Source: a virus
Lineage: Duplodnaviria > Caudoviricetes
Direction: 5' to 3' (one strand)
DNA length: 64,000 nt
Virus record (IMG/VR): IMGVR_UViG_3300029305_002203
Span: 1-64,000 of that record
Shown: positions 38,172 through 62,758 of the stretch, in pieces
Position numbering within the stretch: position 1 is the stretch's first letter
How the letters are laid out: each line of letters begins with the position of its first letter
The notes under the pieces: generated by a model
Databases searched by the model: none
What the model was told of the DNA's origin: nothing
Seen by the model: the letters and a program-made list of their open reading frames with translations, nothing else
Translations under genes and position numbers: made by a program

Positions 38172-38246
38172 TTGCGACAATTTATAATTAAAGCATCAAG
38201 AAAATTACCCATAGATATTATTAATAATGAAAGGAAGATAATATAT

Positions 38247-39452
38247 ATGGGAAAAGATCTTAAAGGAAAAGAACTGGGAGTTGGATTAGGTCAAAGAAAG
38301 GACGGTAGATACGAAGCAAGAGCTGTTGTTAATGGTGTGAAAATTGCTTTATATGATTTCAATTTAAGTGAATTAAAAAGAGAGTTTGAAAGAGAAAAAG
38401 AAAAAGCAAAAAGAAGTAACGTTGTTCATTGTCCAGATATTACAGTAATGGAATGGTTTGATGCTTGGTTTGAGCAATACAAAAAGCCGACATTAAAACC
38501 AACCGGTGTAGTAACATATAAAAGAAAATTTGTTAATACATACGGTGAACAATTAGGTTTTGTTAAGGTTAAAGAATTAAATCAATTTGCAATCCAAACT
38601 GCAACATCTGAACTAGTTAATAAAGGTTATAAGTTTAAGTCAATCAGAGATGCATTATCTGTTTTAAAACTTATGTTAGACGCAGCCGTTGGTAATTGTG
38701 TAATTGATAACAACCCGGCATTAGGTATTATTGTACCAACATATGCCGAAACAAAAGAAGAAAGAAGAGTATTAACAAAAGAAGAACAAAAAATGTTTCT
38801 TAATAAAGTGGAGTCTTCTCATTATAAAGAATTATATCAATTTATGTTATCAACAGGTGTTAGAGTTGGTGAAATGGGTGCATTACAATGGTCTGATATT
38901 GACTTTGAAAATGAGTTTGTTAATATAAATCATTCATTAACTTGTCACTATGTTAAAAGTAAAAAAACTCTCATGCTTACAACACCAAAAACAAAAAACT
39001 CTTTTAGAAAAATACCGTTCTTCGGAGAAACAAAACAAATTCTTTTAGCACAAAAAGAAAAACAACAAAATCTTAAAAAGCAGCTTGGTGACAGATGGAG
39101 AGGTTCAGAAGAACTTGGGAATGCAGATTTAGTATTTACATCTTCGATGGGTTCTCCAGTTACTCGTTATGTTTTAGAGCATGATATGAGACAGATATCA
39201 AAAGAAATCAATGCGATAGAATTATATAACGCTTCCAGAGAAGGAAGAAATGCAGTTGCTTTTGACTATATTCACCCTCATGCATTAAGGCACACTTTCG
39301 CTACAAGATGCTTTGAAAAAGGTATGAGTGTGGAGACAGTTCAGAAAATAATGGGACACGCAAATATTAATATGACTATGAGTTACACGCATGTTTTAGA
39401 CGATGTATTGAAACAGGCAGCATCAAATGTGGGTAATTTCTTAGATGCGTAA
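38247..39452 (+). CDS. int: tyrosine integrase with Tn916-type arm-binding N-domain
   Basis: QRKDGRYEAR; TGVRVGE, HALRHTF, MGH, catalytic Y in MSYTH. Confidence 0.93.
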   Translation: MGKDLKGKELGVGLGQRKDGRYEARAVVNGVKIALYDFNLSELKREFEREKEKAKRSNVVHCPDITVMEWFDAWFEQYKKPTLKPTGVVTYKRKFVNTYGEQLGFVKVKELNQFAIQTATSELVNKGYKFKSIRDALSVLKLMLDAAVGNCVIDNNPALGIIVPTYAETKEERRVLTKEEQKMFLNKVESSHYKELYQFMLSTGVRVGEMGALQWSDIDFENEFVNINHSLTCHYVKSKKTLMLTTPKTKNSFRKIPFFGETKQILLAQKEKQQNLKKQLGDRWRGSEELGNADLVFTSSMGSPVTRYVLEHDMRQISKEINAIELYNASREGRNAVAFDYIHPHALRHTFATRCFEKGMSVETVQKIMGHANINMTMSYTHVLDDVLKQAASNVGNFLDA

Positions 39453-39927: not shown

Positions 39928-40734
39928 TTACATGTGTACCAAATTTTGATAATGCGTATCTAATGTTAGTACAGCATTATATAAAACTGATAGAATAAAA
40001 TTTCTCATATTTGTTATCTTACTCGGATAACTATTAATCGCATCAATAGTATAAGTAATATGATTCATATTAACTTTCAATAATATAATTTTCAAATGTT
40101 CACAATTTATTTCCCCATTATTAATTTTAATACGTTCATAGTTATTAACGAATATATCTACAATTACATCTACAATATTATCTACCAGTTCTTTATCTGA
40201 CGAACCAACAAACACAGGCTTATAATCTATATTTGTTTGTATGATGTTAGTATATAAAGTATTATTCTTTATAGTATTATTACTTAAAGTCTTATTATAC
40301 GAGTGGGTTTCCCACTGCATAGGTAAGCTACCGAGTGGGTTTGCCACAAGTGGAGAAGCCACATGTGGGTTTTCAACATATGGCTTTATAGAAGTTTGAG
40401 CCGTAGGTGGATTTTCAACATATGGGTTATCACATACTTCATATTCATAATAAAACTGTTTTGTTTCGTCATCTTTAAGCCTATGTTGTATAAGATAACC
40501 ATTGTCTTTTAATTCTTTCCACGCACCTCTAAAAGAAGTTTCACCATCCGTAGATTTATTAATTAAGAACTGCTTATAAAGAATGAAGTTCTCCAAACTA
40601 ATATAAGATTCAATGAGTGATAATAATCCCTTGGCTTTCAAAGATAAATTCTCGTCTCTAAGAGCAATGTTACTTACTTGAGCAAATGATGTCTTTTTCT
40701 TTCTGAAAGCTCCTGATTGCTGCATATAAATCAC
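39928..40734 (-). CDS. replication initiator-like protein (wHTH N-term, DUF6017/DnaD-like C-term)
   Basis: FAQVSNIALRDENLSLKAKGLL; PYVENP linker repeats; ITNMRNFILSVLYNA. Confidence 0.75.
   Translation of the reverse strand: MIYMQQSGAFRKKKTSFAQVSNIALRDENLSLKAKGLLSLIESYISLENFILYKQFLINKSTDGETSFRGAWKELKDNGYLIQHRLKDDETKQFYYEYEVCDNPYVENPPTAQTSIKPYVENPHVASPLVANPLGSLPMQWETHSYNKTLSNNTIKNNTLYTNIIQTNIDYKPVFVGSSDKELVDNIVDVIVDIFVNNYERIKINNGEINCEHLKIILLKVNMNHITYTIDAINSYPSKITNMRNFILSVLYNAVLTLDTHYQNLVHM
40303..40433. repeat. iteron-like repeats inside rep (putative origin)
   Basis: GTGGGTTT.C.AC variants at 40303, 40335, 40350, 40365, 40407, 40422 next to AT-rich 40230-40300. Confidence 0.6.
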
Positions 40735-40737
40735 TCC

Positions 40738-41790
40738 TTATTTAATTAGTTTCATTAGTTTTTCTCTTGCAGAAAGTTCTTGAGTTGGTTTCTTATTTTG
40801 TATAGTTATAGTGTAATCATCTTTGAATGTTACACCAGCACTAAACTGCATATCTAACTCAATTTTCTTTTTGTCTTCTTTAATAGATTCGTATAATTTG
40901 TTAATAATAGTCATTGGATATTGCAATCCACTCATAAATATCATATCTGTTTTAGTCTGATATCCTTGGAATATATCTCTCCAATATCCAAAGGTTAATT
41001 GTAACTCATCATAATCAACTTTCACAGTCTTACGCATAGTAGAAGATTTAATCCCACAGTAGTATAATGTATTACGTGGTTCAATATCGGCAAAAATATT
41101 ATTTGCAATAGAAGTCTTTATTGCCGATGTAATATCTGTTTGTGTAGGTTTGCGAACAAAATGATTGAGAATACCATATCCCTTTTGTTCTAACATTGCA
41201 CAGATTTCAGAATAATCATAAATACCATCAATAGAAGTAGACACATCTGATATAAGAGAATAGATTAAATTAGCAAGTGTCTCATTGCTTTTAATAAAAT
41301 TAGACTCTTTATTGTTATCAACAATAAATACAGTATGTTGAGCACAACCGAATAACTCTTTAAGTAATTCATATGAATTGGTTTTTGCTTGTAATGACTC
41401 TGATAAACTTGGAATAGTAATAACCGGAATAACAATTTTTCCTAATTCATTTTCTAATAACTCTGTCATTAATGCACACATTCCAGAAGAAGTACCACCA
41501 CCAGTTGATCCAAATAAAAATACATACTTTCCAGTTAAATAACGTTCTATGTGTTTTAATATATCCTCATAATTATGTGCTAAATATTCTTTAGATACAT
41601 CTCTGTCTTTGTGACAACCAATCGCCCCCTTAACGTGATAGTAGTGCATATCTTGTAATCCTAAACTATTCAAATCTTCCATAGCAGAATTAATATAAAA
41701 ACTTGCCAAGTTATATTTTTTAAAAGCTGCAACCTGATTTCCACCACAAGCACCAATTCCTAATAATCCAAAATCTTTTAAGTCATGCAT
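40738..41790 (-). CDS. tubZ: tubulin/FtsZ-family GTPase (TubZ-like)
   Basis: GIGACGGN, tubulin signature GSTGGGTSSG, VDN, D..EI. Confidence 0.85.
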   Translation of the reverse strand: MHDLKDFGLLGIGACGGNQVAAFKKYNLASFYINSAMEDLNSLGLQDMHYYHVKGAIGCHKDRDVSKEYLAHNYEDILKHIERYLTGKYVFLFGSTGGGTSSGMCALMTELLENELGKIVIPVITIPSLSESLQAKTNSYELLKELFGCAQHTVFIVDNNKESNFIKSNETLANLIYSLISDVSTSIDGIYDYSEICAMLEQKGYGILNHFVRKPTQTDITSAIKTSIANNIFADIEPRNTLYYCGIKSSTMRKTVKVDYDELQLTFGYWRDIFQGYQTKTDMIFMSGLQYPMTIINKLYESIKEDKKKIELDMQFSAGVTFKDDYTITIQNKKPTQELSAREKLMKLIK

Positions 41791-41792
41791 AC

Positions 41793-42053
41793 TTATACCC
41801 CCTTAATTAAATTAATACCATCTTCAGTAATGTAATACATTTTTTGATTACCATAGTTCCCTGATTGACAAACCAAACCTTTATCAATTAATGAGGATAA
41901 ATGTTTCCAAATACAAGATCTTTTTACTTCGGTTATATTCATTTCTTTAATAGTCAACCCAAGTATATGATTTGTTGCCCCATTAGAATCTAAGGAACTT
42001 AAAATGAGATAATCAATTCTGGAAAGTTCTGTATGATTCCCTGCTGTTTCCAT
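41793..42053 (-). CDS. winged-HTH protein, TubR-like adaptor
   Basis: Small wHTH (YYITEDG) immediately upstream of tubZ; GGAGG SD. Confidence 0.65.
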   Translation of the reverse strand: METAGNHTELSRIDYLILSSLDSNGATNHILGLTIKEMNITEVKRSCIWKHLSSLIDKGLVCQSGNYGNQKMYYITEDGINLIKGV

Positions 42054-42081
42054 ATGTTCCCTCCTTTTCTTAACAGTCACA

Positions 42082-42121
42082 AAATGTTATAAAGTGTTAC
42101 AAAGTGTTCCTTTGTTGTTCA
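42082..42121. repeat. 10-bp-phased direct repeats upstream of tubR (tubC-like)
   Basis: AAAATGTTAT-AAAGTGTTAC-AAAGTGTTCC-TTTGTTGTTC. Confidence 0.45.
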
Positions 42122-42202
42122 CATTATAAACAGTATTGTTTATAAAGTCAACAGATATATTTTTTATTTTGTGATATAATTATAGTGAAGGGAGAGAAGA
42201 GT

Positions 42203-42400
42203 ATGGAAGTTAATTATGATAAATTGTTTGTATATATGTTTAAAAATAATATAAGTAAAAGTGAGTTAGCTGAAAAGGCTGGGATTAGTAGAAATACAAT
42301 CATTAAAATGACAAAAGGTGAGCCAGTACATTTATCTGTAATATTAGCAATTTGTGAAGCCTATGGACTTCCATTATCAGATGTAATTCAAGAAAAATAA
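42203..42400 (+). CDS. Cro/C1-type HTH regulator (HTH_26)
   Basis: VNYDKLF...SKSELAEKAGISRNTI; TGnTATAAT promoter at 42172-42180. Confidence 0.85.
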   Translation: MEVNYDKLFVYMFKNNISKSELAEKAGISRNTIIKMTKGEPVHLSVILAICEAYGLPLSDVIQEK

Positions 42401-42442
42401 AAAAAGGGGACTACTCTTGAATTGAGTAATCCCCTTAATTTA
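42399..42442. terminator. bidirectional terminator, near-copy of 39882-39925
   Basis: AAAAAAGGGGAC...ATTGAG.TAATCCCCTT. Confidence 0.75.
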
Positions 42443-43771
42443 TTATTCAGATAAATCTAATAGCATATTATATTCATCCTCAGAAATAATTTTTAATGCC
42501 CAATCTTTAGGACAATACATTTTAAATTTCTTATTTATATTATTCTTCTTATAGTACATATTCCATAAGTAAACATTAGCCAAAGAACGAGCTTTATGCA
42601 TTTCACATATGTATGTTGCACGTTTGTCCGGTGTGCCAAATTCTTGATAATTATATGCGCTACACCACGAACACCCTTCAGCAATAGGGCAGTAAAAACA
42701 TTCATCTGTACTTTGAGTTTTACGATCAATACAGTTTAAACAATGCAAACAATCTTTTTCACATTTAGATGATGCAATGCCATCATTTACATTTCCGATC
42801 CTCATTGGATTACGAGTACAACCAAGAGATGACTCCATATATCTAATACAAGGATATAAGTACCCATCTGGGTCACATGATAACATTAATCCAGTTCCTC
42901 CACACCAATTTTGTAGGTCATTTTCATTTTTCTGTTTGAAGAAGCTTTCTTCAAATAAAGAACAATATATATCCCCAACTAAGTCATTATCAATAAAATA
43001 ATTGGCAATCTTTTTTAATTGTTTATAAAATTCTACAGAGTGTTCTTGTTCCCATCCTTTTTCATAAACACAATTTGCATTTATATCTAAATAGCCCAAA
43101 TCAACCATATGAATAATTGCATCATAAAGATAATTTATGTTACCAGGAGCAATAGTTATTTTGCTTCCCATATAATTACCTTTTGCAATCCAATCGTTTG
43201 CACCAGCAACTGCAATATCATAGCTTGGATTTCCATTAGGGAATATTCTGCAAGAGTCATGTAGTTCTTTATTACCATCAATAGTGATAGAAAAAGACAT
43301 ATGATCTTTATTTTTATTTAAAAACTTTTGCACTCTTTCATCAAAATAAAGTACGCCATTAGAACATATACTTATACAATAATTCGTTGCCCAAGGATGT
43401 ATCAATTCAATGGTGCGTTCTCTAAAATAATCTACGATTTGATCTATTAATTCAATTTCAAGAAAAGGTTCTCCACCAATAAATTCAAGTATGATTGCAG
43501 GAGAGTTTTCAGGATTAATATATTCTTTAAAACCTTTTTTCCCGGAGAGTAATAAGTCAATATATTGCTTTGCAATATCAAAAGACATTCTTCTTTTTCC
43601 TTTATTGATTTGGTAACAATATGTACATGCAAGGTTACAATTATCTGTCACTTGAAAAGTTACAGTTCTTGATAATACCATTTTAGATGAGTCATTAGAT
43701 GAATATTCAGGGTACAATCTTGCAATCATATCTTGCCATTGTTCAAGTCTTCTTAATTTCTTTTCTGTCAT
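42443..43771 (-). CDS. radical SAM/SPASM peptide maturase (CXXX-repeat target family, TIGR04115-like)
   Basis: CNLACTYC, FIGGEP, SITIDG; SPASM WCGG...YPC...CFYCPIAEGCSWC...IC. Confidence 0.9.
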   Translation of the reverse strand: MTEKKLRRLEQWQDMIARLYPEYSSNDSSKMVLSRTVTFQVTDNCNLACTYCYQINKGKRRMSFDIAKQYIDLLLSGKKGFKEYINPENSPAIILEFIGGEPFLEIELIDQIVDYFRERTIELIHPWATNYCISICSNGVLYFDERVQKFLNKNKDHMSFSITIDGNKELHDSCRIFPNGNPSYDIAVAGANDWIAKGNYMGSKITIAPGNINYLYDAIIHMVDLGYLDINANCVYEKGWEQEHSVEFYKQLKKIANYFIDNDLVGDIYCSLFEESFFKQKNENDLQNWCGGTGLMLSCDPDGYLYPCIRYMESSLGCTRNPMRIGNVNDGIASSKCEKDCLHCLNCIDRKTQSTDECFYCPIAEGCSWCSAYNYQEFGTPDKRATYICEMHKARSLANVYLWNMYYKKNNINKKFKMYCPKDWALKIISEDEYNMLLDLSE

Positions 43772-43792
43772 TCCTTTTACTCCTATAATTCC

Positions 43793-44140
43793 TTATTCAA
43801 CATTTTCTAAAGCTGCAATTCCACATTCGCATAAAACATCTATTGTCATAATATTAGTAGTAAAATCAACACTCCAGTTATACTGATGTTTACCATATAA
43901 TTCTTCTGGAACATATAACTTTTCAACTTCCAATTTTGCCATTTCATACTCTGCCTTAATTCTTGACAACTCTTCAGAATATTTCAAAAAAGGTTTGCTT
44001 ACAAACAAACTATCATCAGTATCATCCTTATGCATCTCAAGTAATTTAGTAATAATTTCTTCTCTTGTGAATACTTCATAATTTAATCTCTGTAAATAAT
44101 TAACCATATCCTGAGTAACACTAATTTTAATCTTTTTCAT
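43793..44140 (-). CDS. CXXX-repeat modification system partner protein (TIGR04116-like)
   Basis: Small helical protein ending W.VDF.T between substrate and rSAM. Confidence 0.6.
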   Translation of the reverse strand: MKKIKISVTQDMVNYLQRLNYEVFTREEIITKLLEMHKDDTDDSLFVSKPFLKYSEELSRIKAEYEMAKLEVEKLYVPEELYGKHQYNWSVDFTTNIMTIDVLCECGIAALENVE

Positions 44141-44162
44141 AATTTAATTCTCCTTATTTTCT

Positions 44163-45455
44163 TTATACTGAAGCTTTTGCTGAGCCAAAACATTGTGCAG
44201 AGCAAGTAGCATAACAATTTGTTGAGCATGTTGTTGAACATGAATTTTTACATGTGGCTGTACAATTTGTATTACAACTACTTCCACACCCAGTAGAACA
44301 TGTTGTATAACAAGTAGTAGTACATTGGCCGTAACAAGAACCTTTGCAACCTGAACATTGAGAAGAACATCCGGCACAACCATCACAACCCGAACATGAA
44401 GCGCAAGAGCCACTACATCCTGAGCAACCTGAACCACATCCTGATGAACAACCATTACAACCACCAGTACAACTAGTACATCCACTAGAACATCCGGTAC
44501 CACATCCTTCTGCACATCCTGTGCCGCATCCTATAGCACATGAGCCTCCGCATCCATCTCGGCAAGCACCGTCACAACCAGAACATCCGTTACATCCTCC
44601 GCAAGAACTTGTACAATCACCAGAACAACCACTAGAACATGCACTTGCACAACCTGAACCACAACCACTTGTACAGTTTGAACCACAACCGCCTTGGCAG
44701 CCATAACATCCACCACCACATCCTGCGCCACAACCAGTAGAACAACTACCACCGCAACCAGAACAACCGGTGCAGTCAGCACATCCAGACGAACAACCTG
44801 ATGAACAAGAAGCACCGCATCCACCAGAACAAATATTACCGCATCCGTTAGCACAAGTTGTTCCACAAGTAGCAGTACATCCACTGCCACAACCGCCAGA
44901 ACATCCTGAACAGCCACCATCACATCCTGAACACGATGAACAAGACGAACTGCAACCAGCACATCCTCCACAAGCAGAAGCGCAAGTAGTGCCACAACCA
45001 GTACACGCAGTTCCACATCCTCCGCTACATGTATTACCACAACTTCCTATACAAGTTGCAGAGCAACCGCCAGTACAAGTTCCGCTACATCCGTTACATC
45101 CTCCTGAACAAGTACCAACACACAATCCAGTACAAGCACCTCTACAAGATGAGGTAGTTCCGGTCATAGTTTCTTTTGCCAATGTATCAACATAAGTAAT
45201 TAATTCATTTGTGAAACTGCTTGGTATAAGTTCATTCTGTTTAACGAATTTTAAGTTTCCTTTATCTTTAATTTGCAGTAACAAGTCTATTGTCTTCTGA
45301 CCATGTTCTGCTAAAATTGTTCCACCTTGTTTTGGGGCAGTAGTAAAATCATACGTTGTTGCAGCAAAAGAAGAAAGAGATCCATATCCAGATCTCCTTG
45401 CCATTTCTGCTTTAACTTTATTTTTCAAACTAACAATTTCTGTTGCTGTAAGCAT
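44163..45455 (-). CDS. 430-aa Cys/Gly/Ser-rich CXXX-repeat protein, putative rSAM substrate and tail-associated protein
   Basis: ~100-aa Cys-free N-domain then ~86 Cys spaced only Cx2C/Cx3C; ATG 45455 with GGGGTGA SD overlapping the upstream tail gene stop. Confidence 0.85.
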   Translation of the reverse strand: MLTATEIVSLKNKVKAEMARRSGYGSLSSFAATTYDFTTAPKQGGTILAEHGQKTIDLLLQIKDKGNLKFVKQNELIPSSFTNELITYVDTLAKETMTGTTSSCRGACTGLCVGTCSGGCNGCSGTCTGGCSATCIGSCGNTCSGGCGTACTGCGTTCASACGGCAGCSSSCSSCSGCDGGCSGCSGGCGSGCTATCGTTCANGCGNICSGGCGASCSSGCSSGCADCTGCSGCGGSCSTGCGAGCGGGCYGCQGGCGSNCTSGCGSGCASACSSGCSGDCTSSCGGCNGCSGCDGACRDGCGGSCAIGCGTGCAEGCGTGCSSGCTSCTGGCNGCSSGCGSGCSGCSGSCASCSGCDGCAGCSSQCSGCKGSCYGQCTTTCYTTCSTGCGSSCNTNCTATCKNSCSTTCSTNCYATCSAQCFGSAKASV

Positions 45456-45460
45456 AAAAA

Positions 45461-46420
45461 TCACCCCCAGACTGCTTTCGTTGCGACCCAAGCGGTGCCA
45501 TTATGGTATTTCATTATTCCACCATTACCAGTGTCAATCCATAATAATTCTCTATCAGTAGGAGCTGTAGCACCTATATAACTTCCACCTGAACCTGTTT
45601 CAATTGTTGTCCATGTTGTACCGTTTTTATATTGTAATTCTGCGTTATAAAATCGAATACCATGAGCACCATTCACTGTATTTATAGGTACATCATGTGC
45701 AGTTAATCTGTCGCCTACATTATCTATTTGTTCAGATACATCGTTTAATTGTCCAGCAAAATCACTTAATTGTTCAGCAAAATCGTTTAATTGTGAAGTA
45801 ATATCATCAGTTATATTTGCAAGACATAACCAATTAATATTTGTATCAGTGGGTTCACTGTCAGAATTTTGAACAAGACACTGCCAAAAAGCATTATTAT
45901 GAGCAACAAAATCATTTACTAAATAAAGTGATAAATTATTCCATAAACCTCTTGGGGAAAGTCCCAAACCTGACTCACCTTTCTCACCCTGAATAATTCT
46001 TGGAATCCAATATGTAGTGTTTGTTGGAAGAGTAGCAATAGGTGTATCATCTCTTAAACATTCAAATGTTTGAGTTATGCCATTAACCGAATATGTTACA
46101 AAATTGTATTTTACATATTTGGTTGTTGAATTCCATTCACCTTTATTGACTACTGTTTCATGTATATATGTTTGTATATTATTTAAAAATAAATCTTGGA
46201 CTTCTTCGATAGTCTTACTCAATCTATTCATATATACACTGTCAATAATACATTTTTGTAATTCTGCATTAGATTGTAATAATGTAGCAGCATTAGCAAA
46301 TTGACCATTTGCTATATAACTATTAAATTGTCTCCAGTCAGAATACACACTACTTGATACATCTGTTTTTAAATCAAATCTTTGTACACTGTCAGGAAAC
46401 GTTGTATAACTATTTGCCAT
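45461..46420 (-). CDS. tail fibre/baseplate-associated protein (module B)
   Basis: GEWNSTTKY/GLWN..Y repeats, QGEKGESG, GATAP...LWIDT. Confidence 0.7.
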   Translation of the reverse strand: MANSYTTFPDSVQRFDLKTDVSSSVYSDWRQFNSYIANGQFANAATLLQSNAELQKCIIDSVYMNRLSKTIEEVQDLFLNNIQTYIHETVVNKGEWNSTTKYVKYNFVTYSVNGITQTFECLRDDTPIATLPTNTTYWIPRIIQGEKGESGLGLSPRGLWNNLSLYLVNDFVAHNNAFWQCLVQNSDSEPTDTNINWLCLANITDDITSQLNDFAEQLSDFAGQLNDVSEQIDNVGDRLTAHDVPINTVNGAHGIRFYNAELQYKNGTTWTTIETGSGGSYIGATAPTDRELLWIDTGNGGIMKYHNGTAWVATKAVWG

Positions 46421-46431
46421 ATATTTTCCTC

Positions 46432-47841
46432 CTAGCTATAAGGATCTGTATCATAAAAAGCAACCATGCTAACATCCATAGTACCTCCAGTTGTTGATCC
46501 GTTTATTTGTTTTGTTACATATCTTTTTATATCTTTAGTAGTGTATGATTGATGTTCAATTAACCAATTAACATCCAACCAAGGAATATCAATCATATTT
46601 AAATTTATACTTTCTTGCAATCTACAAGCATGATAAAGTTCATAATTTGCTCTATCTTGAGCTAATGAATTTGAATAAATCTTACTATATTCATCACTGG
46701 ATAATATCTTAGTTATTTCTTCCCCAATATTAGACTTATGAAATGGTGAGAGAGTGTTTGTTTCACTTGCTTCTGCATACACCTGATGTTCACCAAGCCA
46801 ATAAAAGTCATTATTTACTTTTCTATATTTGAATACATTGTATGTTTCTATGGCAAGCGTTTTTGCAGGGATATGTTTTCCTTTGTCATCTACAATATAA
46901 GCCGTTGTTCCTGCAATAGTTAACTTGGAATCTGCACCATTTGTTTGAGGAATAAGAATTGCATATAAATCAAAGTTGCCTACAGATGTGACAGTTGCAA
47001 TAGTGGGAGTATATGTATTAGTAGAAGTATCATAAGTACATGTATCCGTAGAATAAGTTGGTTCTAATTGTTGTCCCCATACAACAACTCGGTTATATAT
47101 TTCTTTAAATGAAGTGTTTAAACCCTCACTGATAACAAGAGGAGAAATAAAATCATAGGTAAGCAAAATATTATCACTATCTTGATGTGGGATTTTTTGA
47201 ATAATAAATGTACCATTAATATCAAAAAACATTTCAAAATCAGAAAATAAAGAAACTACTTCGTTTAATACATCATAATAAGTTTGTGTTGCATCAAATT
47301 CCATTTCGTATGGAATAAGTAATCCATCTAAGTCAGATAAAATATATTTAGTTACATTTGCTTCTTTAAGAAGTGTAACAAGTAATTCTCGAACATTTTC
47401 ATCTTCCTCAAACTTAATAGAACTCTTTAATGCACCGTTTCTGTCACCATTTAATTTACTCATAAGATCCGAACAACTAAGTGAAAGAGTATTAGTAGAT
47501 GAATCAAAAGAGTAATTACTGTCAAGCATTATAAATGTGCCTTTAAGATATTTAATTATCTCACCAGTTCGAACCTCCTTGATGCAAATATAAGGTCTAA
47601 TATACTTGTCCATCCATATACGTTTATCAGTTCCTATTAACATAGAACTATCAGTAACTAATAAATCCATAGAATAAGTTCGTCTAATCGCAGAGTTTGC
47701 ATCAATAGAAAACGAATCAGATATCAATTTCCCTTCTACAACATCAACAACTTTCATATCTGAATTTAACAACTCAACAGTTACAAACAAATCCTTTACA
47801 TTTTGATTTATGATATTTTTATCTCTCTGAGTAATAACCAT
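46432..47841 (-). CDS. tail hub/Tal-like protein (DUF5048-like), module B
   Basis: SAIRRT, MFFDINGTF, IPWLDVN. Confidence 0.65.
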   Translation of the reverse strand: MVITQRDKNIINQNVKDLFVTVELLNSDMKVVDVVEGKLISDSFSIDANSAIRRTYSMDLLVTDSSMLIGTDKRIWMDKYIRPYICIKEVRTGEIIKYLKGTFIMLDSNYSFDSSTNTLSLSCSDLMSKLNGDRNGALKSSIKFEEDENVRELLVTLLKEANVTKYILSDLDGLLIPYEMEFDATQTYYDVLNEVVSLFSDFEMFFDINGTFIIQKIPHQDSDNILLTYDFISPLVISEGLNTSFKEIYNRVVVWGQQLEPTYSTDTCTYDTSTNTYTPTIATVTSVGNFDLYAILIPQTNGADSKLTIAGTTAYIVDDKGKHIPAKTLAIETYNVFKYRKVNNDFYWLGEHQVYAEASETNTLSPFHKSNIGEEITKILSSDEYSKIYSNSLAQDRANYELYHACRLQESINLNMIDIPWLDVNWLIEHQSYTTKDIKRYVTKQINGSTTGGTMDVSMVAFYDTDPYS

Positions 47842-47844
47842 AAG

Positions 47845-48735
47845 CTATACTCCTTCCACATCGACATCAGATAAACCAGCATTGTAAAGATCTGTTGTGC
47901 TATCACTGTCGCCTATTTCCGTGAATTCTATATTATAAATTATATTATCTGGATGACCATCTACTGATTGAGAGATTGTATTACCGGTGCTAACCATCCA
48001 TCTTCGCCCTTTGTTATCCTTTAAAATCATAGCTTGATTTTCTGTTAAAAAATTATTTACTTCTCGTCTGTAAGCAACGGCATTTTCAAAATCTAATTGA
48101 CAATTATCTTTCACTGGTACAAAACTTGTACTCATAGAAAGTGTATCATATTGTGACATTCCGTTAGAGATAGCAAATGGTTTCTTTCTGCCAAGAGTAG
48201 TTATAAATTCCTTATTCTGATTTGTTGTTACTTCCAACGATAAATTCACAAATGCATGATATTGTTTTGCTTGTGTACACAAGTAACATCCATCAAAATC
48301 TGATATAACAGTATTGGTTATATAATTGGCCTCTGTACTATTTAACACCGGAACAATTGCAACTTCGTATTGTGTTTTATTCCCTTTGAGATAGTAATAA
48401 GTTTTAGCAAAATTAAAATCTTCCTCGGAATTAATCTCGTATTCGTAGATGGTTCTCCATAAGGTGTCGCCATATTCTCTTACCTTAATCCTCATAGAAC
48501 TTATTGCACTAATTGGAATCAGAATATTTCCAGCAAGTAAATTCCCCTGGAATGTTGCCCAGAAGATTGTATTAATGTCCCAAATTAAAGAATCGTTTTG
48601 TTTGTTATAATCTGCATTTGCACTAACATATAAATCATTAATTAAACAGTTCATTACATCAATAACATTTATATTATCTCCCAATGTTGTTTTAAGCACA
48701 TCCGTGCCAGTTACAGTCGCACCAAGAAAAATCAT
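47845..48735 (-). CDS. distal-tail-like protein, module B
   Basis: YEVAIVPV, ILKD.KGR.W, FTEIGD. Confidence 0.6.
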   Translation of the reverse strand: MIFLGATVTGTDVLKTTLGDNINVIDVMNCLINDLYVSANADYNKQNDSLIWDINTIFWATFQGNLLAGNILIPISAISSMRIKVREYGDTLWRTIYEYEINSEEDFNFAKTYYYLKGNKTQYEVAIVPVLNSTEANYITNTVISDFDGCYLCTQAKQYHAFVNLSLEVTTNQNKEFITTLGRKKPFAISNGMSQYDTLSMSTSFVPVKDNCQLDFENAVAYRREVNNFLTENQAMILKDNKGRRWMVSTGNTISQSVDGHPDNIIYNIEFTEIGDSDSTTDLYNAGLSDVDVEGV

Positions 48736-49745
48736 ACAATCACCTCCATTTCAAAGAGAGTATCTTTTCTTTTAATCCATAACGAAATCTCATCTTCTGT
48801 ATATGGATTAGCTTTTGTAATCATATAATCATTATTTTTATATATTGCATGAAGTTCAAAATAATATATATCAGAAAACGTATCATATTTATAATCAACA
48901 ATGACAATTTCATCATTTCCTGATAATCTTAAAATTCTTTCATTTACACCAAACTGTGAACCCTTAATTAATAATGAAAAGTCTCCTGAAATAGTAAATC
49001 CTTTATTGAAATGAACAACATTATTTGTCAAGTCTGCAATCTCATTATCAATATAAGTAACATCAGAGTCAGATGTACCTTCTACAGATATAATGTTGGA
49101 TTTCATATAAACTCCACCAGTGTCATACATATTCTGTAACTCAAGTACAAAATATGCTTCCGATTTAATAAAGTCAGCAGAAAAATTAATTCTACCAGTA
49201 GATAACACTATACCATTGATTGTTTCCCCTGTAGCAAGAATAGAATAGTGGTTATTATCTTGTAAGTTAGTTATTTTTACAGTATCAAGTACATAACGTG
49301 TATTAGAATCGTATATTACAACACTATCTGAGTTGTATACTCTAATACGATATGATTGTAACAATTCTCCCTCTGATTGAGCATAGGCAATATTTACACC
49401 ATATGTCTGTGCCTGTATAATTTGGTCTGGTTCAATGTTGATTTGAAAAGTGGGAGTTGAATAGCAATAGAAGAGAAGAACATCTGACCATTCAGAATTA
49501 ACACCATTGCTATCAGTAACCCTAATCGCAGCATTATATAAAGTACCATTTACTAAGCCAGATGAAATAGGTATCGCATGTTCTAATCTCATTGTTGTTT
49601 GAGTCTGTTCGTATACCACTTCGTTTGTTGTGTTATTTTTTATCACAAGTGTATTACTAATAGGTTGATTCCCTAGCCATGAGAACTTAATTGTACTCCC
49701 AAGGGAGGAGTCAAAGCTAGGTATCAAATATAAGCCCGGTTTCAT
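48732..49745 (-). CDS. Ig/FN3-like tail protein, module B
   Basis: SEWSD.LLFYCYSTPTF; tail context. Confidence 0.6.
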   Translation of the reverse strand: MKPGLYLIPSFDSSLGSTIKFSWLGNQPISNTLVIKNNTTNEVVYEQTQTTMRLEHAIPISSGLVNGTLYNAAIRVTDSNGVNSEWSDVLLFYCYSTPTFQINIEPDQIIQAQTYGVNIAYAQSEGELLQSYRIRVYNSDSVVIYDSNTRYVLDTVKITNLQDNNHYSILATGETINGIVLSTGRINFSADFIKSEAYFVLELQNMYDTGGVYMKSNIISVEGTSDSDVTYIDNEIADLTNNVVHFNKGFTISGDFSLLIKGSQFGVNERILRLSGNDEIVIVDYKYDTFSDIYYFELHAIYKNNDYMITKANPYTEDEISLWIKRKDTLFEMEVIV

Positions 49746-49754
49746 AAATTACTC

Positions 49755-50003
49755 CTAATGAGGCAATATTATTGCATTAATCCAACTGTTTTCTGGTAAT
49801 AAAACATATACAATATCATTCTCAGAATAATCTCCATTACTTACTACAACATGAGAAACACCATCTTTTTGTACAACATATTTATTATCAGCAACTTTTG
49901 AAACAACCCTACATTTATATGTCTTATCGAATTTTGCAGAACTAATTACCTTATTACAAACTGTAAATATAGCATCGGATAAAGCATTACTAATTTCTCT
50001 CAT
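49755..50003 (-). CDS. small baseplate/tail protein
   Basis: FDKTY...V.VLLPEN; directly after tape measure. Confidence 0.55.
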   Translation of the reverse strand: MREISNALSDAIFTVCNKVISSAKFDKTYKCRVVSKVADNKYVVQKDGVSHVVVSNGDYSENDIVYVLLPENSWINAIILPH

Positions 50004-50029: not shown

Positions 50030-50067
50030 AAAAAAAGGGGCAGTCATAAATTAATATGACCGCCCCT
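50030..50067 (-). terminator. intrinsic terminator after tape measure
   Basis: GGGGCGGTCAT...ATGACTGCCCC-TTTTTTT on - strand. Confidence 0.7.
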
Positions 50068-50073
50068 ATAACA

Positions 50074-53000
50074 TTATTTAGAATGTAGTTTCTGAATTAC
50101 TTTTAGTGGTAATTCCTTAACTATTTCATCAACGATCATATCCGAATTATCCGGATTATAAACGTTAATATCACCAATGGTAATTTCCATAGGCGAATTT
50201 TCTCTTTTGTTAATTGGTGCAATGGAAGAATATGCTTTGTTTAAGTTACTAAACATATTTCCCATTTGATTATTAGTTAACACAACTTCTCCATAAAGAA
50301 GTTTTGCCAGTGTTTCATTTGGTTTTAAGTTGTCCTCTGTTAAAGCTACAAAGTTTTCAGGTAATTTATTCTTAGAGGTCGGCTTACCAACAATACCACC
50401 AGAATGGTATAGATGCATTGTTGCACCATTTTTACCACCTTTGTTTGAAGTTGTGTTACCTTTCGTGCCATTACCTTTGTTTCCATTAGTTCCAGCACTC
50501 GCAGCTTTTGCTTGATAATCAAGAATTTGTTTATAAGTTTCTTTTGCATTGGTAAGAATGGTTTCCAATGAACTAAAAGCAGAGTTAGCCTTACTTACCT
50601 GTGAAGCAATTTGACCATATAAAGACACAGCAACATTTTTAAATTCCTCTAATTTTTTCTGTCTTTCGTCTAAAATAGTGGCCTCAGAATCCTTTGCAGA
50701 AGTATGTGCCGATGTAACAAATTCAAGAGCAGAAGTAATATTAGCATCTGCCTCTGTCCATTTATCAGATAATTCTTTTGTTTCATCAGTTCTATTCTGA
50801 ATAGCCTCTAATTCTTCCTCGTTCTCAACTATTGCTTTATTGATTGCATCTTGAGCTGCCTTTATCTCTAATTGTTTAGCGAGATAGGCTTCAGCTTCTT
50901 CTCTGATTTGCTGCATAGTAGTATTGTTTGCATCAATCTTTTCTTGAATGGTATCTACTTCAGTTTTAGCATTATTTAATGAAGTTTCTAAGATTGTTAA
51001 TATACCTTCATCTTGTTGCAGAATACTATTTTCACCAGATGCTTTAAACAATTCAAGAAATGCTCTTTTAGAAATCAATCGTTCATAACTATCGGAAACT
51101 GCATTTAATTTCTTAGCATATTCTTCCCATGTCTTAATTTCATTATCAATAATTAATAAGTCATCTTCTTTATTTTTATTTAAAGTATCAATCTGCTTAT
51201 CAAAAGAAGCGATAGTATTATTATAATTCTGTTGGTCTAATTCTTGTTGAGCATCACGAATAGCATCCTGATCTGCTTCATAAACAAAACCTTCTCCGGC
51301 ACGATAGATACGCTGAGTCTTGTTTCGCATAGCTTTTTCAAGATTATACTTGGCATTCTCTAAATCAATTTCTCTTTGACGTTCATCATTAGACTCTGTA
51401 AGAGCATCCTTTTGTTCTTGGATTGCTTTGATTTGCTCATCATAACCATCTGATAAAACTTGTCTTCTTTCATTTAAAGCTTCAATTTCATCTTGGACAA
51501 GAATGTTAGCATATCCAATTGCACTTTCTATTTTTGACTGTAGTTTGGTCTGATAGTCTAAATCTTCTTCCAATTCCTTATTTAAATCTTCGTACTGTTT
51601 TATTGGCAATAGAAGAATAGCTCTATTATTTTCTATTTGAGCAATAGTACAGGCATTAATATTATCCTGAGCCTCTTGTACTTGGTCATTATATTCCTTA
51701 TATGCTGCGGTTCCCCATTTTTCGCCATCACGTTTTGCGATAGCTGCTTTAAGGTCAGCTTTATATATCTCTTTGTTTTTTTCATGTAAGGCATTCATAT
51801 CCAAGTATTGCTGTGCAGTTCCTTGACCACCTCTGGCTTCTTCCAAATCTATGTCGTTTTGAATATCTTGGATTCGGCTATTATAATAACTGGTTTTATT
51901 AGCACGACCTTCTCTGCCATTCTCATATTTTTTATCTGGTTCTGCCTCTACATATTCATCATAAGCCTTTTGAAGTTTTAATCGTTCTTCTTCGGTGGTT
52001 GCCAAAGCCAGATTAAGTTTTAGTATTTCACCTTTGATTCTTTTTTCTTCGTCAAGCCATTTATTTTTTTCAGCGACAGTCATACTTTCTTGGTCTACAA
52101 GATTATGATTTTCAAGATTTAATTCATTTTGCTCAAGTAGTGTGGAATTGACTTCGTCTTCATTCGCTTTAAGTTTTTCAACAGCATCGTTATTTTGGGT
52201 TATTGAATCTTGCCATCTATCATAAATCTCAACAAGCTTCATAACTCGATTGTATTCTTCCTCGTTGTCAAAGTTCTCAATTGTTAGCTGACTTCTATCA
52301 CCGGTTATCAATTTTATATATTTGGGGTCAATTTTAGCAGACTCTGTCTCCCAAATGCTTTTATATTCTTCAGAAGCTTCTGCGGTGGCAGTAACTAAAT
52401 CCTCGTTTGCCCCCTTTAATTGCTTTAATACAGCCAATCTTTCAGTAAAACCCTCTGTATTACTAAGAGTGTTATCAAGTTCTTCAATTCTACGATTGGC
52501 ATTTTCTACAGATCTTGCAAACCAGTCAAAATCTTCTGAGAATTTTTCTTCTTCACCTGAATCAGATCCAGAAGCACCAAATGGAAGATCGGTTCTAAAA
52601 TCTGGAACAACAGTAGAAATAGAAGTATTAACTCCATTTATAATTTCTTCTATCTCAACAAGTTCTTTTTCTGCTTGTACCATATCATCATATGCAGATA
52701 TAGAGGGATTTAAATAGTGAGTCCGGTCATTAACAGTTGATTCGTATTTTCTTTGAGCACTTTCAAATATTAATTTTTTACGAGCATACTCTTTATCCAT
52801 AGCAAGTTTTGCTTCAAGATAATTTGAATAGTTGCCTAACTCTATGCCATATTCTTTTGCCTTATTAATTAAATCTTCTGATAAACCATCAACAACAAGA
52901 TCATAGAAAGATTCATCTTCGCCTTTTTTCTGAGCCATATATAATTTGTAATTTTGCAAATCTGCTTCGTATTCTTTTTGTAAATCCCTTAATAAATCTT

Positions 53001-54738
53001 TTTCACTTGCTTTGCCTTCTAAGTATTTATCAATAGTAGCAGTAAGACCGGGATATTGACTTGCAATATTTTGTAAAGTAGAAACAGATATTTTACCACT
53101 TTCAGAAACTTCGCCTTTTACAGTTTTAATCATGGAATGAGTAGACTCTAATTCAGACAACATTTCATCTAAACTAATATTGCTACTCTCTGTAGTCAGA
53201 CCATCAAACAATTCTAAGATTTCATCACTGGCACCAGCATCTTGCAAAGAAGATTTTAAGCTTTTTAACTTGTCATCAATTAAAGTCTGAATGGCATATG
53301 ACAAATTATCGGTTTCACTGGTAAGAGTAGGAAAACTTTGCAATAAATCTAATAGGTCGGAAGAAGATAAGTTATTATTCCTAATCTTATCTAAAGCTTC
53401 TGATAAACTATTTAAATCAGATTGATAATTATCTATTCCTTCTTGGTTTGTAGCATCAAACGAAAATTTTGGGACAGAAGTATTAACTGCTTCTTGTGAT
53501 GTTGCAATACTATTTAAATATTGTAAATATACAGATGCGGGAGTTTGACCTTCTTCTAATATTAAATTAGCATCTTCAAGAGCAGTAATTAAATTATCAT
53601 ATTGAGCAATATCACTTTCAGTCAAAGTTCCATTTGCAAACTTCTGTTGAATTTCTTCCTTAGTTTTATCTAAAGATGTGTCATTTAAAGCAAAATCTAT
53701 TTGAAGTGTATTCCATTCACCAGAGCCATTATTTAGCTGATATATTTTTTTCTTCCAAGACTCTATATAATCCCACATTTGCTGATTAAGTGGATTGTCA
53801 AATGTACCGTCTTCATTTCTAAGTAACATTAATGTCTCTTGTTGCTCTAAAAATCCTTGAAGAATAGAAGCAGAACGTTTTCCTAATTCTTCTTGAAGAA
53901 TTAATTGGCTTTCTTGTAACGAAGTGACAAGTTTATCATTTCCCTCTGTTATTGCGGCATCAATTTGATTATTAACGCTTTCTAAATTAAATAATAGCCC
54001 TTGGTCGTCTATACGAGATGCCTCTTTCTCATTAATTTGTGCTGCCCATCCATGTAGCACATTGCCTTCAGCATTATATTCTGTATCAAAATCTGAACCC
54101 CATTCATCATTAAATGTTTCTCTGTTTTGTACTGATAGTTTTTTGGCATCTTCTTTAGCAAGGTCTTCCTTGGTTTTCTTTTGTTCTTCTAATAATTTAT
54201 TTTGCAGAATTAATTTATTAAGTTCATCATCTTCAACAAGAGTGATTGTACCTTCACTTAATTTATTCCTTAATTCTAATATTCTTTTTTCATTATCTAT
54301 TATTGCATTTCCAAGAGATTCAACTTCTTGGATAGTATTTTCATATTCATTTCTTAATTCTGAAATTTTCTCTTTTTGTTCTTCAATGGTTGGATTCCAT
54401 TTTTTATACACTTTAACTGCAAATCCTACTGCCACAGCGATACCAAGAATCCATGTTGCAGGATTAGTAAGTATTGCGGCTGCCATAGCTTTCGCATTTG
54501 CTAATAGAGCAGTAGTATATGCTTGCATTGAGAATGTAGCCAACCCGGTTGCAGAGGCAGAAGCAGTTTTTGCAACAATAGCTCCCGTCTCTGTTTGGGT
54601 TAATTTTTTATTTGCTAATACACTTGCTTTTTGACTTTCGGTTAAATTTTTAGTTAATCTGTCTAATTCATCCGTATCAGTCGCAGTGCTTCTTAATGCC
54701 TCTCCAAAAGCACTCATACCTTTAAAATCAAATATCAA
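50074..54738 (-). CDS. tape measure protein (apparently lacking usual N-terminus; no clear SD)
   Basis: 1554 aa coiled-coil, NPATWILGIAVAVG TM, C-terminal YHSGGIVG...GEVVLT. Confidence 0.75.
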   Translation of the reverse strand: MIFDFKGMSAFGEALRSTATDTDELDRLTKNLTESQKASVLANKKLTQTETGAIVAKTASASATGLATFSMQAYTTALLANAKAMAAAILTNPATWILGIAVAVGFAVKVYKKWNPTIEEQKEKISELRNEYENTIQEVESLGNAIIDNEKRILELRNKLSEGTITLVEDDELNKLILQNKLLEEQKKTKEDLAKEDAKKLSVQNRETFNDEWGSDFDTEYNAEGNVLHGWAAQINEKEASRIDDQGLLFNLESVNNQIDAAITEGNDKLVTSLQESQLILQEELGKRSASILQGFLEQQETLMLLRNEDGTFDNPLNQQMWDYIESWKKKIYQLNNGSGEWNTLQIDFALNDTSLDKTKEEIQQKFANGTLTESDIAQYDNLITALEDANLILEEGQTPASVYLQYLNSIATSQEAVNTSVPKFSFDATNQEGIDNYQSDLNSLSEALDKIRNNNLSSSDLLDLLQSFPTLTSETDNLSYAIQTLIDDKLKSLKSSLQDAGASDEILELFDGLTTESSNISLDEMLSELESTHSMIKTVKGEVSESGKISVSTLQNIASQYPGLTATIDKYLEGKASEKDLLRDLQKEYEADLQNYKLYMAQKKGEDESFYDLVVDGLSEDLINKAKEYGIELGNYSNYLEAKLAMDKEYARKKLIFESAQRKYESTVNDRTHYLNPSISAYDDMVQAEKELVEIEEIINGVNTSISTVVPDFRTDLPFGASGSDSGEEEKFSEDFDWFARSVENANRRIEELDNTLSNTEGFTERLAVLKQLKGANEDLVTATAEASEEYKSIWETESAKIDPKYIKLITGDRSQLTIENFDNEEEYNRVMKLVEIYDRWQDSITQNNDAVEKLKANEDEVNSTLLEQNELNLENHNLVDQESMTVAEKNKWLDEEKRIKGEILKLNLALATTEEERLKLQKAYDEYVEAEPDKKYENGREGRANKTSYYNSRIQDIQNDIDLEEARGGQGTAQQYLDMNALHEKNKEIYKADLKAAIAKRDGEKWGTAAYKEYNDQVQEAQDNINACTIAQIENNRAILLLPIKQYEDLNKELEEDLDYQTKLQSKIESAIGYANILVQDEIEALNERRQVLSDGYDEQIKAIQEQKDALTESNDERQREIDLENAKYNLEKAMRNKTQRIYRAGEGFVYEADQDAIRDAQQELDQQNYNNTIASFDKQIDTLNKNKEDDLLIIDNEIKTWEEYAKKLNAVSDSYERLISKRAFLELFKASGENSILQQDEGILTILETSLNNAKTEVDTIQEKIDANNTTMQQIREEAEAYLAKQLEIKAAQDAINKAIVENEEELEAIQNRTDETKELSDKWTEADANITSALEFVTSAHTSAKDSEATILDERQKKLEEFKNVAVSLYGQIASQVSKANSAFSSLETILTNAKETYKQILDYQAKAASAGTNGNKGNGTKGNTTSNKGGKNGATMHLYHSGGIVGKPTSKNKLPENFVALTEDNLKPNETLAKLLYGEVVLTNNQMGNMFSNLNKAYSSIAPINKRENSPMEITIGDINVYNPDNSDMIVDEIVKELPLKVIQKLHSK

Positions 54739-57851: not shown

Positions 57852-58883
57852 TTATATCTCTTCAAAACTTTGTTTATCATTATTCCATTTATATTTATAA
57901 TCTGAAATCGGTTCTTTTGTCTTATATGAAGCTATTTGATTAAGAGTATCACCGTCAGACCCTATAAATATAATACTATTTTTCATTTGAAGCGACTCAT
58001 AAAATAATATTGCATTAACCTTAACATCAGGGTCACTCCAAAATAGTTCCCATATATTTAAATCATTTTTTTTTAAACAATAAAACCCACTGCCGGCACT
58101 ATATTCATATAGATATATTTTATTATCATATAGAAATAGAAATTGTGGTCTAAGTTCTTCACATTCTATATTTTCAATATATGAAAAACTATTTGTAGAT
58201 TCTTTATAACTAATTATATAATGCTTTTTCGAAGCAAACATATGAATTTCATCTTCTATAACATATCCACGTTTATAAATATTATCATCAATTGATGGTA
58301 TAATACCTCCACATGGAATCCATTCCTGCTGTGCTTCATCCCACACACAAGTTCCATTATAATTAATATTGGAAACTGTTATATTTCGATATAAACAAAA
58401 TAATTTATTGTGTAACACAAAATAGTCACAATATCTTGAACTACTAAATTCTGTATCTCTAAATCCAATGTGAGCAGCACCAATTTTATATGCTGCCCTA
58501 TTTGTTATTTTGGGGTCATAAACATACATTTCGTTTTTCGCTTCATACATAATATAAATTAAATCATTATATACTATCGCATGACATGGATCCGTGTATT
58601 GTGGTAAAACACTTGGTTTTTCGCTCCATTTAAATCCATTATATTTCATAACGCAATAAGGGGACATGACATTATTACTACAATTAAAAACATAAATATT
58701 ATTATCATATAAAACCGAAGCCTTCTCTGGATGATTAAATTTATATTGATTACCATCAGAATCTTTTGGTAAATCTGGCAAACGTCCATATTGTGAAAAC
58801 ACTTCTTTTCCATTATGAATCCAGTTAACAATATTATAATTATTAAACAAAACATTGTTTATTTCAATTCCGTTATATATCAT
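57852..58883 (-). CDS. Kelch-like beta-propeller, putative receptor-binding protein (module A)
   Basis: Repeats VLYDNNIYVF, IVYNDLIYIM, VLHNKLFCL, VIEDEIHMF, LYDNKIYLY. Confidence 0.55.
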   Translation of the reverse strand: MIYNGIEINNVLFNNYNIVNWIHNGKEVFSQYGRLPDLPKDSDGNQYKFNHPEKASVLYDNNIYVFNCSNNVMSPYCVMKYNGFKWSEKPSVLPQYTDPCHAIVYNDLIYIMYEAKNEMYVYDPKITNRAAYKIGAAHIGFRDTEFSSSRYCDYFVLHNKLFCLYRNITVSNINYNGTCVWDEAQQEWIPCGGIIPSIDDNIYKRGYVIEDEIHMFASKKHYIISYKESTNSFSYIENIECEELRPQFLFLYDNKIYLYEYSAGSGFYCLKKNDLNIWELFWSDPDVKVNAILFYESLQMKNSIIFIGSDGDTLNQIASYKTKEPISDYKYKWNNDKQSFEEI

Positions 58884-59877: not shown

Positions 59878-60207
59878 TTACATGGGTTGAAACCAAGAAC
59901 CATTTTGTAATTGATCTTCCGGTTCCTCACTACTAATAATGGTAGGAGAGTAATACATACTAAACACTCCCATATTATATACTTCTTCGCTCAATCTATT
60001 AACGAAAGCACTATTTATAATGTATGGTTCTAACACAGATTTATTAGCTTCATAATACTGATAAGCACCTGAAATATCTTCCTGATCAATATATTCATAA
60101 TAAGTATCAATCATTGTTTTAACAGTATCATTCACATCTTGTTTTTCCACAAAACTAGGCAAAGATGTCGGAAAAGTGCTTCCGAAATTATGATTATAAT
60201 TTGGCAT
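59878..60207 (-). CDS. tail adaptor protein (module A)
   Basis: STFP...II.S...NRL paralogous to N-terminus of 45461-46420. Confidence 0.6.
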   Translation of the reverse strand: MPNYNHNFGSTFPTSLPSFVEKQDVNDTVKTMIDTYYEYIDQEDISGAYQYYEANKSVLEPYIINSAFVNRLSEEVYNMGVFSMYYSPTIISSEEPEDQLQNGSWFQPM

Positions 60208-60210
60208 TTA

Positions 60211-61830: not shown

Positions 61831-61831
61831 A

Positions 61832-62743: not shown

Positions 62744-62758
62744 GCTTTATTCCTCCTT

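Follow-up and report, generated by a model that had tools for sequence, protein, structure and literature searches.

Why should a phage tail operon end in an enzyme of the kind that matures peptides synthesized by ribosomes and modified after translation (RiPPs)? This question is raised by positions 1-64,000 of IMG/VR virus record IMGVR_UViG_3300029305_002203 (95.6 kb, about 56% complete, GC about 30%), the whole stretch that we analysed and refer to as the window. The last three genes of a tail-fibre operon in this window, from a large gut-type phage, encode a 430-aa protein with a regular ladder of cysteines, a 115-aa partner and a radical S-adenosylmethionine/SPASM enzyme (rSAM). In dozens of other Clostridia phage lineages, too, tail-fibre genes are followed by this trio, and this suggests a chemically stapled tail appendage. 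The best explanation is that the trio is a dedicated accessory of the tail-fibre module, and we give a probability of roughly 60% to the reading that it makes a tail appendage matured by the enzyme, the probable chemistry being many small thioether rings. Judged from its sequence, the 430-aa protein may be read as a structural appendage (distal fibre or whisker) and not as a peptide precursor. The features on which the argument is built are listed from the start of the operon to its end.

50036..50067, minus strand: terminator preceding the operon, a hairpin and T-run similar in type to that at 42404-42436
46432..50003, minus strand: upstream module B genes, encoding 82-aa, 337-aa, 296-aa (phrog_27355) and 469-aa (DUF5048/phrog_1887 tail) proteins, from open reading frames (ORFs), Pfam and PHROG
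45461..46420, minus strand: tail-fibre protein, 319 aa (phrog_26419 tail fiber, 8e-12)
44163-45455, minus strand: Cys-ladder protein, 430 aa from the ATG at 45455 (ORF 44163-45491), from the ORF list
45138..45455, minus strand: N-domain of the Cys-ladder protein, residues 1-106, from alignment, HMMER and AlphaFold2 (AF2)
44190..45146, minus strand: Cys ladder, the presumed rSAM substrate region, from a direct Cys count
43793..44140, minus strand: 115-aa partner, from tblastn across loci, alignments and AF2
42443..43771, minus strand: radical SAM/SPASM maturase of the TIGR04115 family, from the profile match and invariant Cys
42404..42436, minus strand: intrinsic terminator closing the operon directly after the rSAM stop, with a 13-bp stem, 6 GC pairs and a T-run

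The operon is bounded by two strong terminators (50067-50036 and 42436-42404), with none of note in between, and encodes in order the 82-aa, 337-aa, 296-aa and 469-aa proteins, the 319-aa fibre, the 430-aa Cys protein, the 115-aa partner and the 442-aa rSAM. The fibre gene ends in GTC TGG GGG TGA. Because the ATG of the Cys protein comes 5 nt further on, its Shine-Dalgarno (SD)-like sequence GGGGGTGA overlaps the fibre stop codon; the partner and the rSAM each have an AGGAG-type SD of their own. No signal peptide and no promoter of its own was found for the Cys gene, which lies inside the tail-fibre module and, on this arrangement, is translationally coupled and co-transcribed with it. The gene order, the numbers, the coupling to the fibre gene and the closing terminator given in the original prediction all hold when checked against the ORF list, the Cys count, the SD and the hairpin. 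The possibility that the cassette is a compositionally foreign island was rejected, since the partner and rSAM genes have the same GC as the phage, and codons for Gly, Cys, Ser and Ala account for the higher GC of the ladder gene. The ORFs that run across the ladder in other frames (44144-44515, 44531-45040 and 44770-45195) are by-products of the repeat.

What kind of protein is the presumed substrate? A direct count in the 430-aa form gives 86 Cys, the first at residue 104 and the last at residue 422, with 63 CX3C and 22 CX2C spacings and no other, after a Cys-free stretch of residues 1-103; this bears out the earlier description of a Cys-free N-domain of about 100 aa followed by about 86 Cys at Cx2/Cx3 spacing. 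The 319-residue ladder (C86 G85 S57 T35 A21) consists to 98% of C/G/S/T/A/N/D, with Asp and Glu nearly absent, and some 8 residues separate the last Cys from the stop codon (44163-44165). Of the 4011 gaps between Cys in 80 family proteins, 3872 (96.5%) are of 3 or 4, a regularity that is far from chance. Given that the longest exact DNA repeat within the Cys gene is only 18 nt, the periodicity is held at the protein level without recent tandem duplication, and this short maximum repeat together with the regular gaps indicates that selection preserves the spacing and not the sequence. A recent tandem duplication or an assembly artefact as the origin of the ladder was rejected for the same 18-nt limit and because the family shares the periodicity without the sequence. 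In database searches, phrog_6085 matches the C-terminal part of the Cys protein (2e-9), and no recognised fibre or receptor-binding domain was found in it with NCBIfam, Pfam or PHROG.

The N-domain is predicted by AF2 as a small helical domain with a pLDDT of 80-90 over residues 1-105, and it is kept at 33-68% identity in an alignment of 26 sequences/lineages. A word-based homologue search with this domain returned a single match; a HMMER profile, used instead, reached 490 representative clusters, and in 149 of the 150 listed the domain is N-terminal, mostly with a Cys ladder after it. Two candidate roles present themselves, namely an attachment or oligomerisation module and a leader-like recognition module.

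The enzyme can be assigned securely, by its sequence, to the TIGR04115 family of CXXX-repeat maturases. It covers model positions 2-358 of 359 with 511.9 bits (E 1.2e-153; 512.3 bits in the genome search), the curated cut-off being 350 bits. The next-best families are PapB (1.6e-47), QhpD (1.5e-29), the SCIFF maturase (9e-28) and CcpM, all of which modify Cys-rich peptides, the characterised ones by forming thioethers. Pfam Radical_SAM and Fer4_12 match the N-terminal half, where the three Cys of a CX3CX2C motif at residues 45-52 (C45, C49 and C52) are invariant in 28 homologues, as are C290, C308, C358, C361, C367, C370 and C389 in the SPASM half. The nearest solved structure is CteB (5wgg, 1.7e-21), and since CteB residue 82 aligns to query residue 19, the rSAM lacks the N-terminal RiPP recognition element (RRE) domain of CteB.

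Of the three profiles proposed beforehand as a check on the cassette, TIGR04115 was found in the enzyme at 512 bits, but the other two did not follow. The target-repeat model TIGR04114 reached at best 15.7 bits on the Cys protein against a cut-off of 20, at 45096-45149 where the ladder starts, and TIGR04116 had no match in the phage record at E<=10, while in five related cassette-carrying genomes its matches were all sub-threshold and lay away from the cassette. TIGR04117 likewise stayed at 14.7 bits on the Cys protein against a cut-off of 50. Homologues of the rSAM at E<1e-40 number more than 5,700. TIGR04115 is rare in genomes, occurring in 2 of the 401 sampled in the phylum, as would be expected of a phage-borne trait, and is found in at least 136 viral contigs. 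Several TIGR04115 enzymes (P0007, P0049 and P0108) carry intein/LAGLIDADG domains (PF14528, PF14890 and PF07591), and a 738-aa open frame (G312:C48:13238-14311) is among these intein-type enzymes; inteins are a hallmark of phage-borne genes.

The partner sits directly upstream of the rSAM in almost all loci searched by tblastn, including loci without the N-domain, and forms a conserved family of its own; no family in NCBIfam, Pfam or PHROG matches it. Its AF2 model (pLDDT 92) has a strand, two long helices and a beta-hairpin, and its structural matches are three uncharacterised proteins of uncultured gut phages in BFVD and generic helical hairpins. On the question of where an RRE might reside, none is fused to the rSAM, and the partner model drew only generic helical-hairpin matches. 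The ESM Atlas returned nothing usable for the partner or for the C-terminal domain of the L031 protein described below. Many loci contain an optional fourth gene between the ladder gene and the partner, which is not present in the window; it encodes about 100 aa starting MKI[VI]LKDG.E, has no family match, and is found for example at the following positions.

L085:9355-9660, L010:9386-9676, L014:9362-9664
L011:9297-9629, L020:9117-9440, L102:9232-9642

Does the trio stay with tail genes elsewhere? We compared 101 loci, 21 from genomes and 80 viral (of at least 136), which group into 33 clusters when the enzymes are cut at 85% identity. Nearly all of the loci retain the order Cys protein, partner, rSAM, and in the 33 enzyme lineages, with enzyme identity down to 39%, the trio stays behind or between tail-fibre genes. 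This survey had been set as a check beforehand, and it places the trio with tail-fibre genes and not mainly outside tail modules. Among the two upstream neighbours are Mtd_N, Phage_Mu_Gp48, BppU_N, DUF5048, Peptidase_S74 and Sipho_Gp37 proteins and the PHROG tail fibre families; the two downstream neighbours include holins, endolysins, further fibre genes, and integrase or host genes. The most distant case is the human-gut phage contig MT835573, whose enzyme is 39% identical to that of the window and whose trio lies between fibre genes. A megablast of 10 kb against cultured phages gave no match and no cultured phage carrying the cassette was found in the phage collection. Cassette-bearing prophages occur in the cultured isolates Anaerolentibacter hominis CSJ-1 (L004), Eubacterium pyruvativorans i6 (L014) and Lachnospiraceae bacterium 47-T17 (L018).

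A second tie runs through the fibre gene itself. The first four proteins of the operon are paralogous, at 25-31% identity, to those of a second tail-tip module at 59878-63835, so that the paralogy of modules A and B claimed in the original prediction is real; the label 'Kelch-like' for the 343-aa tip protein of module A (57852-58883, minus strand) was not supported, no Pfam or PHROG match being found at the thresholds used. The N-terminal 70 aa or so of the fibre are paralogous to a 109-aa module A protein (blastp, 31%), and its C-terminal 45 aa or so (about 45464-45600) carry the motif AP...LWIDT..GG..KY.NG..W....VWG. In at least 15 lineages, the window included, this LWIDT...VWG motif closes the ORF that directly precedes the Cys gene. 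The remainder of that ORF is highly variable, and it may be a fibre of 300-970 aa or a mini-protein of 82-89 aa, which in L010 consists of an Mtd_N fibre anchor and the motif only. Two further classes of upstream ending were seen, GTGYGxW[SAQ] and DY[LM]LVN[PY]AYT[SA]V[ST]A followed by V or F.

Running a degenerate DNA pattern of the motif alone over the viral collection gave about 54 in-frame C-terminal instances. A Cys-ladder gene comes after about 45 of these and, in loci that extend far enough, an rSAM 41-66% identical to that of the window. These counts include near-duplicate contigs, yet they span many enzyme lineages, in one of which the genes run partner, enzyme, ladder. If the cassette had no functional tie to the fibre, nothing would make it co-travel with the final 45 codons of the fibre gene. 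Some nine motif-ending fibres (L117, L118, L123, L130, L142, L143, L174, L176 and L187) have no Cys-ladder gene within 3 kb downstream, and their endings deviate slightly (CWGD, CWSE, ATFS and others). A PDB profile search with the motif found no match.

The third tie is the company that the ladder keeps within its own polypeptide. In L102 a 200-residue CXXX ladder opens an 834-aa protein that goes on into two glycine-rich domains of the ALK_LTK_GRD type (5e-90). The ladder protein of the L031 cluster (37 contigs) bears an unassigned globular domain of about 170 aa at its C-terminus, and that of L021 begins with the ladder and has an N-domain-like segment behind it. Elsewhere (L010, L011, L014, L016 and L017) an 'N-domain plus short ladder' gene and a long-ladder gene are separate. 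All in all, the ladder behaves like a tail-fibre shaft module, and the enzyme and partner like dedicated maturation machinery, although both roles are predicted from gene arrangement. In L102, L021 and L120 the N-domain is absent while partner and rSAM persist, so the N-domain is not a universal handle for the enzyme; its dispensability appears to fit an attachment or oligomerisation role better than that of a leader.

The ladder genes vary in other ways as well. L025:7681-9585 holds two tandem paralogous ladder proteins of 273 and 316 aa. The ladder protein at L024:5177-7129, a contig assigned to Tenericutes by binning, has 650 aa and 145 Cys. At L068:5995-7497 it has 500 aa and 105 Cys, and the next protein, of 497 aa, matches Peptidase_S74 weakly. 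In 25 related contigs of the L085 cluster (L071-L101, for example L071:8119-9300) a single conserved in-frame TAA breaks the ladder frame, with AAGGAGG right behind it; the ladder runs on for 225 more codons with no canonical in-frame start. Either readthrough or a split gene whose start is odd could account for this.

On these grounds, the mechanism that we propose is as follows. The helical N-domain would anchor or oligomerise the Cys protein at the end of the 319-aa fibre, and the ladder of about 320 residues at CX2-3 spacing would be modified in the anaerobic host cytoplasm, ahead of assembly, by the TIGR04115 enzyme acting jointly with the 115-aa partner. The chemistry would consist of many small rings in which a Cys sulfur is linked to carbon as a thioether, which is the most likely reaction given that the nearest characterised relatives are PapB, CteB and QhpD. 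The product may be a stiff, protease-resistant shaft that is independent of redox state. With only 8 residues following the last Cys in the window protein, the ladder itself would be the distal tip and not a stalk for a head domain. The gene anatomy, the family of the enzyme and the conserved linkage to tail-fibre genes are shown by the sequences; we infer that the Cys protein binds the fibre and is present in the virion, and likewise which cross-link forms and what the partner does. In its broader form the proposal would have RiPP-type radical chemistry produce tail appendages of a class widespread among phages, in which a viral rSAM/SPASM enzyme installs dozens of thioether rings along a Cys-ladder shaft of the virion and the ladder proteins are the natural substrates of the whole TIGR04115 family; this we regard as an even bet.

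Several observations weigh against a matured tail appendage. The window Cys protein has no detectable homology to characterised tail proteins, and its putative place in the virion, like its putative stapling by thioethers or loading with metal, is deduced from comparative genomics. AF2 yields no confident fold for the ladder (pLDDT about 30). Fold searches with the full-length Cys protein gave spurious matches to low-confidence helices only and none with the N-domain (Z<5); neither the N-domain nor the partner has informative structural neighbours. Raw locus counts overstate independence, since many loci are near-duplicates from one metagenome. Between the N-domain and the three classes of upstream C-terminus no obvious co-variation is seen, and a specific docking of one to the other is made less likely by this. 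Finally, two features of the locus, its position at the junction of tail-fibre and lysis genes, a classic moron site, and its conserved N-domain of about 100 aa before a hypervariable Cys core, much as in a leader-core RiPP precursor, lead directly to the strongest alternative.

According to this alternative, the trio is a passenger (moron) RiPP-like system at the tail/lysis junction whose product is not part of the virion, with the N-domain serving as a leader recognised by partner and enzyme; the product could be a large modified Cys-rich polypeptide, released at lysis or active in the lysogen as an antimicrobial, a metal chelator or a factor for host modulation or exclusion. The enzyme family is indeed closest to RiPP maturases, an rSAM without an RRE of its own beside a separate small partner would suit such a system, and in most prophages the cassette is the last element before the holin and endolysin genes. 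However, no peptidase or exporter was found among the window neighbours, nor in the Pfam and PHROG families of the two genes on each side in the 33 lineages (downstream, the top 25 families listed), in agreement with the earlier statement that neither is nearby. Nor does a free-standing passenger easily account for a gene that is coupled to the fibre gene with neither signal peptide nor promoter, for fibre genes that sometimes flank the trio on both sides, as in the Eubacteriaceae prophage L010, for ladders fused to receptor-binding-type domains, for the fibre C-terminal motif that co-travels with the cassette, or for an N-domain that can be lost while partner and rSAM remain. We therefore consider a passenger system unlikely, though it is the alternative that fares best.

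A different kind of alternative accepts the structural role but not the thioethers: the ladder might bind metal or iron-sulfur clusters, or become a disulfide shaft after lysis, while the rSAM carries out another modification, for example epimerisation, methylation or other C-H functionalisation, or acts on few sites. CX2C and CX3C are classic metal-binding spacings, and the ladder is nearly devoid of Asp and Glu, the acceptors used by PapB and QhpD. The chemistry of TIGR04115 itself is also unreported, as the literature searched contained no paper on the chemistry, biology or targets of the CXXX-repeat/TIGR04114-04117 system or on a link to tails. Against this, the nearest characterised relatives all form Cys thioethers, no metallochaperone genes were found near the cassette, and strict Cys periodicity beside a dedicated Cys-peptide maturase points to Cys as the target of the enzyme, so we rate a thioether-free ladder as quite improbable.

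Least credible of all is that the three proteins of the trio serve only the assembly of the preceding fibre, as its scaffold or chaperone, and are absent from the finished particle: tail-fibre chaperone genes do usually follow fibre genes directly and many loci have extra genes of about 100 aa between Cys gene and partner, but an enzyme-modified ladder of 320 residues would be a costly chaperone, and the fusions to distal receptor-binding-type domains place the ladder within the mature fibre polypeptide.

How, then, would an enzyme-matured tail appendage relate to what is known? The enzyme family is already catalogued; what differs here is a larger target with an N-domain, another partner family and the tail-fibre context. 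As in the CXXX-repeat system, a TIGR04115 enzyme (512 bits) stands next to a target with Cys at every third or fourth residue, in the layout of target, small protein and enzyme. Unlike in that system, the window target, of 430 aa with 86 Cys and a conserved N-domain of about 103 aa, falls below the TIGR04114 and TIGR04117 cut-offs, the partner has no TIGR04116 match, and the whole lies in a phage tail-fibre operon. With the ranthi-/sactipeptide maturases PapB (freyrasin), CteB (SCIFF) and QhpD the enzyme shares the rSAM/SPASM architecture and sequence kinship, and PapB likewise acts on tandem short Cys-containing repeats. In contrast, the window enzyme falls far below the cut-offs of those families and is without an N-terminal RRE, and its substrate is several-fold longer, nearly without Asp/Glu acceptors and not accompanied by any protease or exporter that we could find. 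A short RiPP precursor composed of leader and core also differs from the 430-aa protein and from its relatives, which measure 200-650 aa or more and in some cases bear large globular domains.

There is also a likeness to tail fibres with repeat shafts (collagen-like Gly-X-Y fibres, Mtd_N-anchored fibres or those bearing Peptidase_S74 chaperone domains), with which the Cys protein shares the position in the tail module and a periodic low-complexity shaft after an N-terminal module; the ladder of its relatives lies before a distal globular domain, and the neighbours carry Mtd_N, S74, collagen and Gly-rich domains. It is distinguished from them by a Cys ladder in place of Gly-X-Y and by a modifying enzyme of its own. 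The literature searched reports no enzyme-installed cross-link for a tail fibre, and held nothing relevant on thioethers in phage, on jumbo-phage proteomics, or on rSAM with tail fibre and cysteine-rich proteins. In the chainmail of HK97-type capsids, autocatalytic Lys-Asn isopeptide cross-links harden a virion structural protein. The appendage proposed here, from genes alone, would resemble it in the covalent cross-linking of a virion structural protein. Whereas the chainmail is self-catalysed and lies in the capsid, the cross-links proposed here would be put into a tail appendage by a separate radical enzyme, ahead of assembly.

If this reading is true, the ladder would be the first series of cross-links that an enzyme installs in a virus particle, no larger substrate of a RiPP-like maturase would be known, the unstudied TIGR04115 family would gain a biological role, and radical SAM peptide maturation and virion structure, two fields so far apart, would be joined. 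It would also explain how phages of strict anaerobes, unable to depend on disulfides, harden the part that contacts the host for a protease-rich gut. A shaft of tandem thioether rings would be a new protein material, and the modular cassette of fibre C-terminal motif, ladder protein, partner and enzyme might be reused to stabilise engineered proteins.

Some other genes of the window lie just outside the operon. Directly downstream, the region 39928-42400 contains a small helix-turn-helix gene on the plus strand and genes for a TubR-like 95-aa protein, a tubulin/PhuZ-like 350-aa protein (phrog_17961/4733) and a replication initiator-like 268-aa protein, and an integrase is encoded at 38172-39452 on the other strand; together these genes suggest that both plasmid-like maintenance and integration may be available to this phage. 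Just upstream of the module B terminator, a 1554-aa ORF (50074-54738, minus strand) has no PHROG match and is 55% identical to its equivalent in L002 and L003; it is presumably the tape-measure-like protein of module B.

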